Part shown: positions 54,450 through 62,036 of the stretch, in pieces
How the letters are laid out: every line of letters starts with the position of its first letter
Numbering within the stretch: the first letter of the stretch is position 1
Source: a virus
Virus genome (UHGV): UHGV-1351068
Direction: 5' to 3' (one strand)
Length of the DNA stretch: 64,000 bases
Program-made: the position numbers and the translations under genes
Notes under the pieces: model-generated
Database searches by the model: none
What the model saw: only the letters and a program-made list of their open reading frames with translations
Told to the model about the DNA's origin: nothing

Positions 54450-55601
54450 CTATTCTTCAGAAATTTCAATTTCTTTTTCGTACTCTTTTGGAACATATCC
54501 AGCCCAGTACTTCAAGAACACTTTTTCAAGGTCTTTAAGCAGTTTATCTACATCTACTGTTCCTTCATACATGTTCATGATAACACCAAAAAGATGACGC
54601 TGATTAACCGTTGCTTTCTGTGCAGCAATGGCATAGTCTTTACGAGCACGACCTCTGTATTCATCATAGAATGACTGACACAGCTCAAGTGACTTTCCAA
54701 GGTAATCTAGATAAGCTTGCTCAAATGCAGAAATTTTCTTAATTGCATATTCGTCTCCAGCAAAAAGAGAACGCAAGTCATCAGAGTTTGCAGATACGAC
54801 AGACGCAAACAGTCTTTCATTTGACGTTATTGAGTCTTTGGTGTGATGAAGAGCTGAGTACCATTCTGTTTTAACCTTAAATCTCTGCCCAGTGTTTAGA
54901 ACTGCAATGTATCCTTCTACGCCTTCAAGTGCACGAACACCTTCAACCCAAGTACTAGGGTCAGAAATTCCATAAGCATTAATTAAATAAGGACGAATTT
55001 TAGCATTAGCGTACAAATCGTCATATTTAACATACTCGCCGGTTGCGTTATCACGGACGTTTAACACAAACAATTGTGGCTCCTGATATGCAAGAACAAC
55101 ACGATTATCAGGTGAAACAAATTCCATGTTTACCGTATAACCATCTAGCGTTAACTCAAGAACGACTTGATGAAGCGAAGAATACTCTTCACTATTAAGC
55201 AGGGCAGAAGACCTTCTCGCCTGGTCACTATAAAGAGAGGTTTTTGATTTAAGATATAGATACCCATCATCAACATAAGATGACACTAGAGAGCCATCAG
55301 CCTTATCCATAATGTATTCTACATCACTAATATCAATTCCCATTGTCATCGGGTTTTCATTCAAGTTAAAGAATTTTTCCATTGGACGAGAAGCAATACG
55401 AATTGGAGTATCACCATCCATTTCAAACATGATGCCACGGCACTCAAGAGCATCTGGTTTTAACCACTCGCTATAACTTGCGTAGTGATATGAAAACACT
55501 CTGAACTTACCATCCATAGGACCAGTAAAATCTTTATAAAAGAATTTTGCAACTTCTGAGCTTTCACACAGATTCATTAAATTTTTATATAGCTCTAACA
55601 T
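54450..55601 (-). CDS. rnlA: RNA ligase 1
   Basis: 383 aa (T4 374); ligase motif I KADGSL. Confidence 0.85.
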   Translation of the reverse strand: MLELYKNLMNLCESSEVAKFFYKDFTGPMDGKFRVFSYHYASYSEWLKPDALECRGIMFEMDGDTPIRIASRPMEKFFNLNENPMTMGIDISDVEYIMDKADGSLVSSYVDDGYLYLKSKTSLYSDQARRSSALLNSEEYSSLHQVVLELTLDGYTVNMEFVSPDNRVVLAYQEPQLFVLNVRDNATGEYVKYDDLYANAKIRPYLINAYGISDPSTWVEGVRALEGVEGYIAVLNTGQRFKVKTEWYSALHHTKDSITSNERLFASVVSANSDDLRSLFAGDEYAIKKISAFEQAYLDYLGKSLELCQSFYDEYRGRARKDYAIAAQKATVNQRHLFGVIMNMYEGTVDVDKLLKDLEKVFLKYWAGYVPKEYEKEIEISEE

Positions 55602-56011
55602 TTCTTTACCTTATGTTGTGTGTTCCATGGAGGATTGAACTTTTTAATAAACATCGGTTCTTCCAAGTCCATAGTGGATATTGACATCTCGCCAAGTTCA
55701 TTATTAATCAAAAGATTAAAACACTGACGAGCATAGAACTCTACTTTTTTACCAGCCATTAGTGCTTCAAAAATCTTGGCAGATTTAGCCGAATCAGAGG
55801 TTTGGTCTTTCCGATTAATAGCAGTTCTATAATAATTTATACGTTTACGAAGATTTTTAGTCTTACCAATGTAAACTAGTTCATCATCAACTGCGATGGC
55901 ATAAACTACGTTCAACTTGTTTGCTACCAAAACAGGTTTAATACTGAAATCTGGTTCTAACTCAAGTTGAACATATTTTATAAAAGAAAACTCGTTAGCA
56001 ATATCATTCAT
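55595..56011 (-). CDS. denA: endonuclease II (GIY-YIG)
   Basis: 138 aa (T4 136); GIY-YIG-like VVYAIAV..LVYIGKT..R; position rnlA-denA-nrdB. Confidence 0.65.
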   Translation of the reverse strand: MNDIANEFSFIKYVQLELEPDFSIKPVLVANKLNVVYAIAVDDELVYIGKTKNLRKRINYYRTAINRKDQTSDSAKSAKIFEALMAGKKVEFYARQCFNLLINNELGEMSISTMDLEEPMFIKKFNPPWNTQHKVKKC

Positions 56012-57237: not shown

Positions 57238-59484
57238 TTAAAGCTTACAGGCCGCGCAGTCAGCAGAGTCTTGAATCATATCATCGTTACCGGAACCATC
57301 ACGGGTGTTATGATAGTAAAGAGTCTTACCACCAAAGTACCAGAAATAAAGCAAGTCGTCCATCATTACCGACATTTCAACTTTTCCTTTAGGGAAATTA
57401 GCCGGGTCGTAATAAGTATTAGCAGAGATGCTTTGGTCTACAAATTTCTGCATAATCAGAACCTGGTTCAGATAAGGCTTATTACCCTGTTTCGCGAGCT
57501 GCCAGGCATAATCATAAAGGGAAGCATTGTGTTCAACATTTGGAACGACTTGGTTGAAGCTTCCTTCTTTTGATTCTTTAACTGACACTGGTCCACGTGG
57601 TGGTTCAATACCGTTGGTAGAGTTTGATACCTGGCTTGACGATTCGCATGGCATAAGCGCAGATAGCGTTGAATTTCGGATACCGTATCGCTTGAGGTCT
57701 TCTCGCAGGAGTTCCCAGTCACAGACATAGTTTGGAGCTGCGAGTTGGTCAATCCTTTCATTGTACCAGTCAATAGGCAGTTCACCACGTCCGTATCGAG
57801 TTTCTTTGTAAAGCGCGCACGGACCTTTTTCGCTAGCAAGTTTAACTGAGGCTTTGATGAGTGCATATTGAATACGTTCCATCATTTCGTGAGTAATATC
57901 ATTAGCATCTGTGTATGAAGCAAAGTTGCTTGCTAACCAAGCTGCATAGTTAGTAATGCCAACACCTAATGCTCGACGGTCTTTAGCTTTTAATGCTTTG
58001 TCTACAGGATAGTCTTGGTAATCCAAAAGGTTATCCAAAGCCCTTACCATTACTTCTGCGATTTCGTTAACTTCTTCTTGGTCTTGCCAGTTGAAGTTGT
58101 CGAGCACGAATGCTGCGAGTGTACACAGCGCGATTTCGCCATCTTCTTGGCCAACATCCGAAGTTGGTAACGCAATTTCGAGGCAGAGGTTTGATTGCTT
58201 AACCGTAGCCACATCACGAATAAAAGGACCATATTCACCAACGTTATCTACCATGTACGGGTAAATTCGAGCAGTACCAGCACGTTCAGTAAGGAACAAC
58301 TCAAACAGTTCACGAGCTTTAATACGTTTCTTTCTTATATCTGGATTCTTTTCCAGTTCTTCATATAATGTACGGAACGCTTGTGCATCACGGAAGTATT
58401 CTGTGTACAGCGTGCCAAGACACACATCTGGACTAAACAGAGTGATGTAATCATTCTTAATCAAACGTTCAATCATCAGGTTATTAATCTGAACACCATA
58501 ATCTAAATGACGAATACGGTTTTCATCTACACCTTTGTTGTTCTTAAGTACGAGGAGGTTTTCAACTTCCAAGTGCCAGATTGGATAGTACAGTGTCGCC
58601 GCACCGCCACGAACTCCACCTTGGGAGCAGGATTTAACTGCTGTCTGGAAGTGTTTCCAGAAAGGAATAACTCCAGTATGTTTGACTTCACCAAATCCAA
58701 TTTTTGAACCCTCTGCGCGAATCATGCCTGCATTAATACCAATACCTGCACGCTTACTGATGTATTTCGTAATTGACGCAGCAGCTTCGTTAATTGAATT
58801 AAGACTGTCACCACCTTCAATAACCACGCATGAACTGAACTGGCGTGTCGGAGTACGAACACCAGACATAATTGGTGTTGGCAATGAAATCTTTTTAGTA
58901 GAAACTGCATCATAGAAACGAATAACGTTTGCTAAACGATTTTCGCCATCATCTTGGTGCAAGCACATACCGATCAGCATAAAGGCAAACTGTGGAGTTT
59001 CATACAATTCACCAGTATGACGGTCTTTTACGAGATACTTCTCGATAAGCTGCATTGTTCCAGCATAAGTCATAGTGAAATCACGCTCATGCTTAATATA
59101 AGAATCAAGCAAAGTAATTTCTTCTGCAGACCACTTACTTAGAATTTCTTTATCGTACTTATTTGCGTTAACACAACGTGAAATGTGGTCAATAAATGCA
59201 GGCGGTTCAAACTGTCCATAAACACGTTTACGGATTTCAAACATTGCTGCATTGGATGCTACATATTGATAATCTGGCTCATCAATAGAAATGCTATTCG
59301 CCGCTACCTTAACGATAGTCTTCTGGATATCTGCAGTGCTCATGCCATCACGCAGATGAGATTTAATAATTTCATACAACTCGTATGGGTCTACTTTAGT
59401 TCCTTCGCACGCCCATTCGAGGACTTTAATGATTTTCTGCATGTCAAATTCTTGACTAACACCTGAGCTCTTAATTACTTGCAT
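57238..59484 (-). CDS. nrdA: ribonucleotide reductase alpha subunit
   Basis: 748 aa from ATG 59484 (MQVIKSSG..; track ORF extends 29 codons further 5'); ATP-cone N-terminus, class Ia active-site region. Confidence 0.85.
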   Translation of the reverse strand: MQVIKSSGVSQEFDMQKIIKVLEWACEGTKVDPYELYEIIKSHLRDGMSTADIQKTIVKVAANSISIDEPDYQYVASNAAMFEIRKRVYGQFEPPAFIDHISRCVNANKYDKEILSKWSAEEITLLDSYIKHERDFTMTYAGTMQLIEKYLVKDRHTGELYETPQFAFMLIGMCLHQDDGENRLANVIRFYDAVSTKKISLPTPIMSGVRTPTRQFSSCVVIEGGDSLNSINEAAASITKYISKRAGIGINAGMIRAEGSKIGFGEVKHTGVIPFWKHFQTAVKSCSQGGVRGGAATLYYPIWHLEVENLLVLKNNKGVDENRIRHLDYGVQINNLMIERLIKNDYITLFSPDVCLGTLYTEYFRDAQAFRTLYEELEKNPDIRKKRIKARELFELFLTERAGTARIYPYMVDNVGEYGPFIRDVATVKQSNLCLEIALPTSDVGQEDGEIALCTLAAFVLDNFNWQDQEEVNEIAEVMVRALDNLLDYQDYPVDKALKAKDRRALGVGITNYAAWLASNFASYTDANDITHEMMERIQYALIKASVKLASEKGPCALYKETRYGRGELPIDWYNERIDQLAAPNYVCDWELLREDLKRYGIRNSTLSALMPCESSSQVSNSTNGIEPPRGPVSVKESKEGSFNQVVPNVEHNASLYDYAWQLAKQGNKPYLNQVLIMQKFVDQSISANTYYDPANFPKGKVEMSVMMDDLLYFWYFGGKTLYYHNTRDGSGNDDMIQDSADCAACKL

Positions 59485-59509
59485 AAGTCCTCTATAGTAA
59501 GTTACCCCA

Positions 59510-59517
59510 TATAAATA
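59510..59517 (+). promoter_or_regulatory. late promoter TATAAATA (I-TevI-like endonuclease gene)
   Basis: Exact motif 22 nt upstream of ATG 59540; SD AGGAG. Confidence 0.55.
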
Positions 59518-59539
59518 TAATTTTATATAGGAGAATATA

Positions 59540-60271
59540 ATGGAATCTGGAATATATGTTATTATAAACACTAAAACTAATAAGCACTATGTAGGAAGTG
59601 CTGTTAATTTTGAAGAACGCTGGAAAAGACATTTTAAAGAATTAGAAGGTGGAAATCATCATTCTATAAAGCTGCAACGTTCTTATAATAAGCATGGGAA
59701 AGATGCTTTCGTATGTAAAATCGTTGAAGAACTTCCATACGAAAAATCTATCATTGTTGAGCGTGAAAATTATTGGATGAATGAATATAACTCAAAGGAA
59801 AACGGGTATAACATAGCAGATGCATCGTTCGGAGATACTTTATCTCATCATCCAAGAAAGCAAGAAATTTTTGATAAAATTTCAAATACAATTAAAAATA
59901 ATAATTCAAAATTATCACCAGAAGAACTTAAACAAAAACATGGTAGACCTAGAGATATCAAAGGTAAAACTATAGAAGAACACTACGGTTTAAACCGGGC
60001 CATAGAAATAAGTAAAAAGTTTCAAGAAAGAAATTCAGTAATGAACATGAAAGGAAGCAATAATCCATATTATGGACAGAAACATACCGATGATGTAAGA
60101 AAAAGAATTTCTGACTCTCAACGTGGTAAAAAGAAACCCCATCTAAAAGTAAGTATAGATGGGGTTGAATATTCAACAATAGCAGAAGCTGTGCGTCAAA
60201 CAGGAATAAGCAGAAAACTTATAACTAAAAGATGCGCTCTGGATTGTTGGGAAACATATTTATACTGCTAA
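59540..60271 (+). mobile_element. free-standing GIY-YIG homing endonuclease, close homolog of I-TevI (GIY-YIG + NUMOD3 + NUMOD1/HTH)
   Basis: 243 aa; N-terminal about 95 aa roughly 70% identical to recalled I-TevI (SGIY.I.NT.N..YVGSA..FE.RWKRHFK.LE.G.H.SIKLQRS.NKHG...ERE..W..E.NSK.NGYNIADA.FGDT); NNPYYGQKHTDDVRKRIS and GVEYSTIAEAVRQTGIS DNA-binding modules; own late promoter 59510-59517. Confidence 0.8.
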
Positions 60272-61143
60272 ACTGCCATCTTTCCTTTAATTGCTGGGTG
60301 AGATTCATATCCTTTAAGAACAAAGTCAGATGGTTTCATCATTCCTGTAACCCAGGCTAATTGTTCTTCTGTTGCTAATTCATGAAATTCTTTATCTTTT
60401 ACTGGAGGCCAATAATTAATTTCAAGTTCACACAGCTCTTTTGGCTCTCGACGCAAGATTTCTTTACACTGTTCAATATGGTTCAGATAAATGTGAGTGT
60501 TACCACCAGTGAATACCAAATGCCCAGGTTTAAGATTGGTCATTTTAGCAATGATATGAACCAATGCTGCATATGACGCAATATTGAAGGGGAGGCCAAG
60601 GAATACATCTACAGAACGCTGATACCATTGGAGGTCAAGATGCCCCTGACGAACGTTAAATTGATACAGCAAATGACATGGTGGCAATGCCATCTTATCC
60701 AAATCAACCGGGTTCCAAGCAGTCACAATCTGACGACGGTCATATGGAAGTTGCTTGATACGATCAATGATCAATTTCAGTTGGTCAACACCCATGAAAT
60801 CACGCCATTGCTTACCATACACAGGACCTAGCTCACCACCGGAATACCCCATGTCTTTTGCCTGGTTTTCATAGTTGTCGTCCCAGACAGTTTTACCTTC
60901 TAGTAATGAGTCATGCTGAATAAGACGTAATTCATGCACATTAGTAGACCCACGCATGAACCAAATCAGCTCCGCAATGCACGCTTTCCACGCAAGACGC
61001 TTGGTAGTTACTGCCGGAAATCCTTCTTGTAAATCAAACCGGTGTAGAGTACCAAACTTTGCAATAGTACCGGTACCAGTACGGTCATCCGTCTCATAGC
61101 CGTTTTCAAAAATGTCTTTAATTAATTCTTGGTATTCACGCAT
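60268..61143 (-). CDS. td: thymidylate synthase, intronless
   Basis: 291 aa from ATG 61143 (MREYQELIKDIFENGYETDDRTGTGT..) very close to T4 Td; continuous ORF, no intron. Confidence 0.9.
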   Translation of the reverse strand: MREYQELIKDIFENGYETDDRTGTGTIAKFGTLHRFDLQEGFPAVTTKRLAWKACIAELIWFMRGSTNVHELRLIQHDSLLEGKTVWDDNYENQAKDMGYSGGELGPVYGKQWRDFMGVDQLKLIIDRIKQLPYDRRQIVTAWNPVDLDKMALPPCHLLYQFNVRQGHLDLQWYQRSVDVFLGLPFNIASYAALVHIIAKMTNLKPGHLVFTGGNTHIYLNHIEQCKEILRREPKELCELEINYWPPVKDKEFHELATEEQLAWVTGMMKPSDFVLKGYESHPAIKGKMAV

Positions 61144-61453
61144 TAAATTTTTCCTGAAGAGGTGTAAAGAAAAGCTGATCACCACGCTTTTCAAATCGCC
61201 CAATAATAGACACTACATCATCATTAACCGTCACATTACCGTGTGACATTCCGATGAACATCTTCTTATAATCACGTTCAATTTCAATAGGTATATTTCC
61301 ATTTCGGTTATATACTGTAGTTGAACCGTTATAAGTGCTAAGACCATTATAACTGAAAACTAGAAGATGAATACCATGCTTAAATGGAAATCTTTTCCAC
61401 CTCTTTTGGACTTTGTCTTCTGATAGCTGAGTGATATCATAGTTTGCGCTCAT
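61136..61453 (-). CDS. hypothetical protein (105 aa) inserted between frd and td
   Basis: ORF overlapping frd stop by 17 nt and td start by 8 nt. Confidence 0.45.
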   Translation of the reverse strand: MSANYDITQLSEDKVQKRWKRFPFKHGIHLLVFSYNGLSTYNGSTTVYNRNGNIPIEIERDYKKMFIGMSHGNVTVNDDVVSIIGRFEKRGDQLFFTPLQEKFNA

Positions 61454-62036
61454 AGACCACCTCTGAAATGTTAGTCACTTCATCAATATGATACCAGTGA
61501 TTTTCTTTAGTAATGAATCCTGATTCTGGCCAAGTAGGAGCTGTTACAAATTCAGCAGGTAGAGTGACATCAGAATTCACTCTATGACTTTTTCTAATGA
61601 TTGTTTGGATAACCCTATCCGCGTATGGATATGCCTTCTGGATGATTCCGGCACCACCTATGATAGAATAATTAAGGTCTCTATTAAAAGTGATAGTACT
61701 GTTGTAAGAAGTATGAGCGGCCATAATGTCACCACCCAAGAAACCGATAAATTCTAATTCACTTACATAAGCATCTGCAAAGAAGCCATTTTTAGCAGTT
61801 GCCAACGCACGACTCATGTCTTGGACAACGATTGTCTTACGCCCAGGAAGAGGTTCAGGAAAACTCATAAAAGTCTTTGCTCCGCAAATCAAGATAGTAT
61901 CTCGAGTACGATTAGCAAAGTTTTTCATGTCCTGGGAAATATGTTTCCATGGAAGACCATCGCCTAAACCGAAAGCATTTTCATTTTTGCCGTCTACAGT
62001 TTTTGTAGGAGCAAAGGCATAAACTATTTGAATCAT
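61437..62036 (-). CDS. frd: dihydrofolate reductase
   Basis: 199 aa (T4 193); PTKTVDG.NE.AFGLGDGLPW and HRVNS..L matches recalled T4 Frd. Confidence 0.85.
   Translation of the reverse strand: MIQIVYAFAPTKTVDGKNENAFGLGDGLPWKHISQDMKNFANRTRDTILICGAKTFMSFPEPLPGRKTIVVQDMSRALATAKNGFFADAYVSELEFIGFLGGDIMAAHTSYNSTITFNRDLNYSIIGGAGIIQKAYPYADRVIQTIIRKSHRVNSDVTLPAEFVTAPTWPESGFITKENHWYHIDEVTNISEVVYERKL

Follow-up and report, generated by a model that had tools for sequence, protein, structure and literature searches.

The stretch of viral DNA analysed here, UHGV-1351068 (64,000 nucleotides; hereafter the window), belongs to a T4-like Klebsiella phage of the genus Jiaodavirus, its best database match being KPN6 (96.5% identity over 14 kb). 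Between its thymidylate synthase gene, td, and nrdA lies a gene for a 243-residue GIY-YIG endonuclease related to I-TevI which, together with the td intron, is the textbook model of intron homing. We estimate at about 0.6 the probability that the gene and its upstream signals form an active free-standing homing endonuclease cassette of the I-TevI lineage, spreading by intronless homing. Sequence comparisons show that the enzyme is homologous to I-TevI and keeps its catalytic residues, that the gene is under purifying selection and present in only some relatives, and that the cassette has passed between genera as a unit.

A free-standing relative of I-TevI

The protein shares with I-TevI of the T4 td intron (structures 1MK0, 1LN0 and 1I3J) a three-part architecture and almost its length, 243 versus 245 residues. 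Identity to T4 I-TevI is 70% in the catalytic domain (68/97 residues), 31% in the linker, 36% in the DNA-binding domain and 48% over the whole protein. The original prediction, made from the sequence alone, had called the N-terminal 95 residues nearly identical to I-TevI, which was an overstatement. The GIY-YIG domain is recognised by Pfam (E = 5e-15) and all catalytic residues are kept, with Y6, Y17, R27, H31, H40, E76 and N91 invariant in our alignment (A1). The NUMOD3-like element and helix-turn-helix foreseen in the C-terminal half are both present. Pfam NUMOD3 matches residues 171-191 at 29.2 bits, above its cut-off, residues 152-240 match the DNA-binding-domain structure 1I3J (E = 1.5e-10), and the I-TevI_DNA-bd entry matches residues 201-238 at 22.7 bits, below its cut-off of 27. 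The region is homologous to I-TevI residues 130-245, and the start of the linker conserves the pattern DT.S.HP.K.EI.

When the complete T4 genome was searched with the protein, I-TevI was the sole match at E ≤ 1e-5. Judged by this comparison the protein is therefore an I-TevI relative, far closer to that enzyme than to the generic Seg proteins with which it might have been confused. It departs from the I-TevI subfamily in three respects, lacking the Cys4 zinc finger, residence in the td group I intron and a homing-site-like, autorepressive operator that overlaps the late promoter. In I-TevI the finger acts both as a distance ruler and as a safeguard of the operator. Here, as had been predicted, no C-x-C...C-x-x-C finger is found in the 243 residues, and a second NUMOD3-like stretch stands in its place. 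Across the homologues the finger is present in all five intronic copies (5/5), in none of the ten convergent free-standing copies (0/10) and in one of three co-directional copies (1/3).

The gene is free-standing, as originally proposed, and it is the layout that establishes this: td is intact, and the endonuclease ORF (open reading frame) is intergenic, on the opposite strand, between the stop codon of td and the start codon of nrdA. Both neighbours expected to be intronless are so. The single 291-residue td ORF matches Pfam Thymidylat_synt in one stretch (profile positions 2-266 of 266, E = 1.5e-94), and nrdB is one 380-residue ORF with a one-stretch match to Ribonuc_red_sm. The layout equally refutes the suggestion that the ORF sits in an unrecognised intron, which we consider hardly tenable. 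An Rfam search for intron-like RNA around the ORF (window positions 58500-62000) gave 0 matches at E ≤ 1, a result to which we attach no weight since the same search at gathering thresholds also misses the genuine T4 td group I intron (T4 td record L005). Introns that contain ORFs can thus escape such a search.

Distribution, mobility and selection

The order nrdA, opposite-strand endonuclease gene, td is found in at least eight genera of Straboviridae. It was seen in Jiaodavirus, Tequatrovirus (Ozark, N2, LH2 and others), Kagamiyamavirus (EcS1), Tegunavirus (phiR1-RT), Winklervirus (Gravdalen), Lazarusvirus (Kimel), Hadassahvirus (AbTZA1) and phage 133. In the metagenomic contigs L059, L067 and L068 a co-directional copy immediately follows td, and intronic copies occur in T4, Melville, CGG4-1, L055-57 and L065/L066. 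A single-protein query of IMG/VR found nothing; an alignment-based query gave matches, and among the best 80 loci the closest eight are all td-linked (8/8), as are 12 in all, the 68 more distant ones being unlinked to td. Neighbour-joining gives good support to two clades, the intronic T4-type one (99%) and the free-standing one of the enterobacterial phages (99.5%). The deeper branching is weak (55%), so that the tree fails as an arbiter of which of the two forms came first.

Both forms may share a genome. The free-standing gene and an intronic I-TevI lie about 0.7 kb apart in the Escherichia coli phage LH2 and, judging by matches in two places, they also coexist in RPN226, sutha and TB004. 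Comparison of the LH2 td region (L051) with those of Ozark (L050) and T4 (L052) shows td becoming Ozark-like right after the intron insertion site. This looks like a natural I-TevI homing footprint in a genome that already had the free-standing gene.

Within Jiaodavirus the distribution is patchy. The endonuclease gene is present in 18 of the 166 phage records that match the region, corresponding to 15 distinct phages, and some 15 of roughly 150 genomes of the genus have it, a frequency of about 10%. Non-carriers have instead two small co-directional ORFs, homologues of T4 nrdA.2 (phrog_2458) and nrdA.1 (phrog_464), the latter encoding a well conserved DUF4326 protein (Pfam E = 1.4e-19). In carrier/non-carrier alignments divergence starts exactly after CATAAGTCCTCTA, and the match resumes at the last td codon. 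Both borders of the 0.78-kb cassette are therefore sharp, the left one immediately following the nrdA Shine-Dalgarno sequence and the right one falling in the last codon of td. No near-isogenic pair of carrier and non-carrier is available in the database for the window phage, whose best match is 96.5-97.5% identical.

Three contexts can be distinguished. In the window the cassette replaces both nrdA.1 and nrdA.2, while among E. coli Tequatroviruses, for example Ozark, nrdA.1 alone is replaced and nrdA.2 is kept. In KP179 and PKO111 the cassette lies beside an orphan ORF of 76-81 residues, placed between nrdA and the endonuclease gene, which matches no PHROG and does not resemble NrdA.1. Movement between genera is best seen by comparing KP179 with Ozark, where the cassette is 92.8% identical and the nrdA and td flanks only 71-72%. 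Synonymous divergence (dS) is 0.30 in the endonuclease gene against 1.98 in td and 1.79 in nrdA, and the cassette thus crossed between the genera long after these diverged.

All 12 sampled copies are intact (12/12), and ratios of non-synonymous to synonymous divergence (dN/dS) of 0.05-0.18 in each of the three domains indicate purifying selection. The gene in Erwinia phage Gravdalen (L147:2501-3228) is split into two ORFs of 156 and 74 residues and looks like a copy in decay. Presence/absence polymorphism, transfer between genera, purifying selection, intact copies and a decaying one are together the marks of an active selfish endonuclease gene. The cassette is a discrete mobile unit and acts like one recombining right at its borders, within an intensely mosaic region. 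In lying between conserved genes, in being present or absent among close relatives and in moving horizontally as a unit, it resembles the free-standing homing endonucleases of T4-like phages.

We propose that the cassette spreads according to the general model for free-standing endonucleases (PMC2988022). A dedicated late promoter would drive the endonuclease gene, which runs opposite to its neighbours, and the product would be a GIY-YIG nuclease head joined by a flexible linker to a DNA-binding tail of NUMOD3 and helix-turn-helix. In co-infecting relatives without the cassette it would make a double-strand break, an event which, like its site, we infer, somewhere in the td-nrdA region. Recombinational repair from the carrier genome would then copy the 0.78-kb cassette into the td-nrdA interval, with displacement of nrdA.1 and, in the window phage, of nrdA.2. 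Such a process would be the 'intronless homing' described for the T4 Seg enzymes.

The target of the endonuclease

Every close relative, intronic or free-standing, is physically tied to td, and the DNA-binding domain is homologous to that of I-TevI. On these grounds td is the most likely target gene, an assignment we make tentatively and at somewhat short of even odds. The td stretch that had been singled out as equivalent to the I-TevI homing site was correctly placed (window 60621-60589, minus strand), and the T4 homing site quoted alongside it agrees with the T4 record. The equivalent of the intron insertion point falls between 60595 and 60594, and alignment confirms that the window td retains, at the right distance from it, the CNNNG motif, which the I-TevI subfamily cleaves 23-25 nucleotides from a binding site across the td insertion point.

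The original prediction went further and suggested that the enzyme may cut this site, the carrier being shielded by its own synonymous substitutions in td. A DNA-binding domain homologous to that of I-TevI and a correctly spaced CNNNG are in keeping with such an idea, and in a first sample four carriers with GGC^CTCCCC and three non-carriers with GGT^CTACCC gave a perfect split at positions -1 and +3. In database-wide searches with 32-mers, however, the split vanishes (Fisher p = 0.24). Of the 95 phage records with the window allele GGC^CTCCCC, about 80 lack the endonuclease, and the 33 with the T4-like allele GGT^CTACCC include the carriers Merci and Nispero. Over td nucleotides 511-575 two non-carriers, pzk-kv4 and ATCCa, match the window at every position, whereas KLB2, whose enzyme is 99.6% identical to that of the window, differs at 13 positions. 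Wider sampling thus contradicts immunity alleles at the insertion-site equivalent. We regard this version as very improbable, and synonymous differences in td do not explain how a carrier avoids cutting itself.

Several results weigh against the main reading and its choice of td. The td homologue of the homing site is identical in carriers and non-carriers of two genera, both in the Jiaodavirus comparison just given and in Tequatrovirus, where the carrier Ozark equals the non-carrier RB14 over td nucleotides 351-861. A column-wise association scan of 10 carriers and 8 non-carriers over about 4.8 kb of flanks found no endonuclease-specific nucleotide in td, in the 1350 nucleotides beyond it or in the first 1680 of nrdA; no column exceeded 0.57, and no endonuclease-specific single-nucleotide polymorphism was seen within about 2 kb on each side. 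Nor does the endonuclease allele type track the td 3' haplotype, so that no co-conversion tract points to td, and comparisons of the td 3' end and nrdA reveal no natural tract linked to the gene. Finally, the best I-TevI-style, td-like operator candidates upstream of the free-standing cassettes score 10-13/20 (p 0.2-0.98), which is not significant, while the T4 and Melville controls score 14/20 (p about 0.02). The missing operator fits the missing zinc finger, which in I-TevI keeps the operator from being cut (PMC2988022).

Two candidate tracts were discarded. The divergent last ~150 nucleotides of td, found in 5/10 carriers, represent an allele that is also common in phages without the endonuclease. 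The nrdA haplotype at nucleotides 99-366 that appeared linked to carriers (Ozark and LH2 versus T4, RB14 and R5505) contains a 46-mer present in 15 records, mostly of endonuclease-less phages.

The only sequence that differs consistently between carriers and non-carriers is the displaced segment itself, and this raises the chief alternative, that the recognition or cleavage site lies there, most likely in nrdA.1, carriers being immune since their target is gone. At loci with the free-standing gene nrdA.1 is absent in 19/21 cases, compared with 12/41 at loci without it, and every copy at least 87% identical to that of the window (in Jiaodavirus and Tequatrovirus) lacks nrdA.1. A break within a non-homologous region would also fit the want of flanking co-conversion. 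Blocks of nrdA.1, such as TGGGGAAATTACGTCGGTAAAGAT and CATGGTGATATAATAGCT, are conserved across genera even at synonymous sites, TGGGGAAATTACGTCGGTAAAGAT being identical between Jiaodavirus and Tequatrovirus despite dS of about 1.8-2.0 in td and nrdA. Set against this, phage 133 and L060 have both endonuclease gene and nrdA.1, the wider clade is linked to td rather than to nrdA.1, with co-directional copies that have no nrdA nearby, and known T4 free-standing enzymes cut flanking conserved genes (PMC2988022). Nothing resembling the I-TevI site stands above chance in the displaced segment. The best score over six strand/site combinations, 15/20, lies at the td 3' end, is reached by 5/100 shuffles and recurs in carriers. 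A similarity to ATTGCG.CAT in Jiaodavirus nrdA.1 is not conserved in Tequatrovirus. On balance we think a site in the displaced segment possible, if on the unlikely side.

Strong purifying selection with no discriminating target visible nearby might instead mean that the gene is no longer a gene-drive element and is kept because it benefits the phage. It could mediate marker exclusion by attacking td and its surroundings in competitors from other genera, or act as a DNA-binding regulator, I-TevI itself doubling as a repressor (PMC2988022). The coexistence of free-standing and intronic enzymes in LH2, RPN226, sutha and TB004 could be read in the same way. The frequency of about 10%, the patchiness, the recent transfer between genera and the decaying copy are nevertheless the usual life cycle of a selfish element, and no operator-like site is found upstream of the cassettes. 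We consider this explanation distinctly improbable. Less so, but still doubtful, is the proposition that the free-standing clade recognises I-TevI's conserved td site and that the enzyme carried by the intron descends from this free-living lineage. As the td sites do not differ between carriers and non-carriers, this would need unconventional biased inheritance or self-protection. If true, it would imply that the zinc-finger ruler and the operator were added after intron capture and that two enzymes act on one gene in LH2-type coliphages, and it would give the td/I-TevI paradigm of mobile-intron origin the free-standing partner that it has lacked.

Expression signals

The late promoter originally assigned to the gene is found as a motif-level match to the T4-type sequence TATAAATA, upstream of the Shine-Dalgarno sequence (Table 1). 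With 18 copies where 5.6 would be expected, it is over-represented in the window. Ten of these copies fall on the plus strand within 11.7-30.6 kb, consistent with a block of late genes there. In the otherwise dissimilar cassettes of five other genera (EcS1, phiR1-RT, Gravdalen, AbTZA1 and Kimel) TATAAATA recurs at -33 to -35 from the ATG. A second copy in this region (window 60257-60264, minus strand) lies within the last codons of the endonuclease gene (ETYLYC) and is directed at nrdA; it could serve nrdA as a late promoter, with a transcript running antisense to the endonuclease gene.

Predicted folds contain an I-TevI-style hairpin in which the Shine-Dalgarno sequence pairs with CCCC at 59505-59508, upstream of the promoter. 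The window version of this hairpin is weak (-8.7 kcal/mol, z = -0.4) and significance is reached solely by the stronger KPN6 variant (z = -2.7); we rejected it as a sequestering element. In Jiaodavirus and Tequatrovirus cassettes the 7-mer TTACCCC (window 59503-59509) precedes the late promoter, at -38. It is kept in EcS1, phiR1-RT and Gravdalen (L006, L145 and L147) but shifted to -9, between the Shine-Dalgarno sequence and the ATG. A terminator-like hairpin followed by a T-rich run, readable on both strands, occurs at window 59583-59602, inside the endonuclease ORF (codons 15-21), and resembles the internal terminator known from T4 mobE.

Comparison with known systems

The cassette combines features of several systems. 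With I-TevI it shares the conserved NUMOD3 helix and helix-turn-helix, a late-promoter motif upstream and the physical tie to td; it differs in being outside an intron and on the opposite strand, and in having no td-like operator upstream. With the T4 Seg enzymes (SegA-G) it shares an intergenic position between conserved genes, variable presence, a promoter of its own and a presumed spread by double-strand-break repair. There is, however, no similarity to them at E ≤ 1e-5. The Seg targets, moreover, are known and lie in polymorphic flanking genes, whereas the flanks here carry no endonuclease-specific polymorphism.

Free-standing enzymes engaged in collaborative or trans homing include F-CphI at psbA, the T3/PhiI DNA polymerase pair and MobE at nrdB. 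As in those cases, the endonuclease gene adjoins a gene that bears a mobile intron in other phages, and in LH2-type coliphages it adjoins an intron-containing td itself. The window td, by contrast, has no intron to mobilise, and the neighbouring intron of LH2 has its own I-TevI. I-BmoI, from the thyA intron of Bacillus mojavensis, is a GIY-YIG enzyme of the I-TevI family that lacks the zinc finger and cuts a thymidylate synthase gene. The window enzyme is like it, by description only, in family, in lacking the finger and in its association with a thymidylate synthase gene. I-BmoI, unlike it, is intron-encoded.

The finding is incremental rather than surprising, since the gene is already annotated in public records and an 'I-TevI-like' gene was counted in phages 133 and Ac42 in the comparative genomics of Acinetobacter phage ZZ1 (PMC4177764). 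A protein 100% identical to that of the window has been deposited for KPN6, Mexia and Roth16/17/21, and about 27 records annotate the gene, under GenBank labels such as 'endonuclease I-TevI', 'homing endonuclease' and 'intron-associated endonuclease 1'. Within the searchable library we found no paper characterising the free-standing lineage or relating it to the td intron. The first entry of an endonuclease gene into an intron has been argued from other systems, as 'endonuclease-gene invasion' and 'collaborative homing' (PMC3984707, PMC2988022). What is added here is a widespread and selected free-standing sister lineage beside td, in at least eight genera, sometimes sharing a genome with the intronic enzyme and consistently without the zinc finger. 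It offers a natural comparison set for asking what residence in an intron altered in the choice of target, the control of distance and autoregulation. Engineers of Tev-based nucleases also have a practical interest in I-TevI-type nuclease and linker modules that lack the zinc finger. The most useful results are that the immunity idea is rejected and that the arrangement proves to be widespread, under selection and laterally mobile.

Features and neighbouring genes

Table 1. Features of the td-nrdA region. Positions are those of the window unless another record is named.
Feature	Position	Strand	Remarks
nrdA	57238-59484	-	Start codon 59482-59484; Shine-Dalgarno sequence and start codon abut left end of cassette
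Mobile cassette	59495-60271	+	Promoter, Shine-Dalgarno sequence and endonuclease ORF; relatives without the endonuclease have nrdA.2 and nrdA.1 instead
T4-type late-promoter motif TATAAATA	59510-59517	+	22 nucleotides before the endonuclease ATG; motif-level match
Shine-Dalgarno sequence AGGAG	59529-59533	+	6 nucleotides before the ATG; read from sequence
Endonuclease ORF	59540-60271	+	243 residues, GIY-YIG, intact; between td stop codon and nrdA start codon
GIY-YIG catalytic domain, residues 1-98	59540-59833	+	Matches I-TevI catalytic-domain structure 1MK0, E = 1.8e-39
Linker, residues 99-170	59834-60049	+	No Cys4 zinc finger; second, weaker NUMOD3-like stretch
DNA-binding domain and stop codon	60050-60271	+	NUMOD3 minor-groove helix, then helix-turn-helix
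td segment homologous to T4 I-TevI homing site	60583-60621	-	CNNNG (CAGCG) at 60621-60617; candidate target
td, thymidylate synthase	61143-60268	-	291 residues, uninterrupted; convergent with endonuclease gene, the two stop codons overlapping
Orphan ORF	KP179 L003:1697-1927; PKO111 L004:1697-1942	-	76-81 residues
nrdA.1 in endonuclease-less relatives	e.g. L139:1676-1981; T4 L052:3172-3498	-	DUF4326

On the minus strand the gene order is frd, a 105-residue ORF, td, nrdA, nrdB and a denA-like gene. The IMG/VR contig L035 (6.2 kb) holds td exon 1 and the start of a T4-like intron, and about 165 nucleotides later jumps to td residue 258; the jump reflects either a deletion in a td/intron allele or an artefact of assembly. 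Between nrdA and nrdB the window has no mobE-like gene. Directly after nrdB a further GIY-YIG protein, of 138 residues, is encoded (window 55595-56011, minus strand), and this is probably the denA (endonuclease II) homologue rather than a homing endonuclease.

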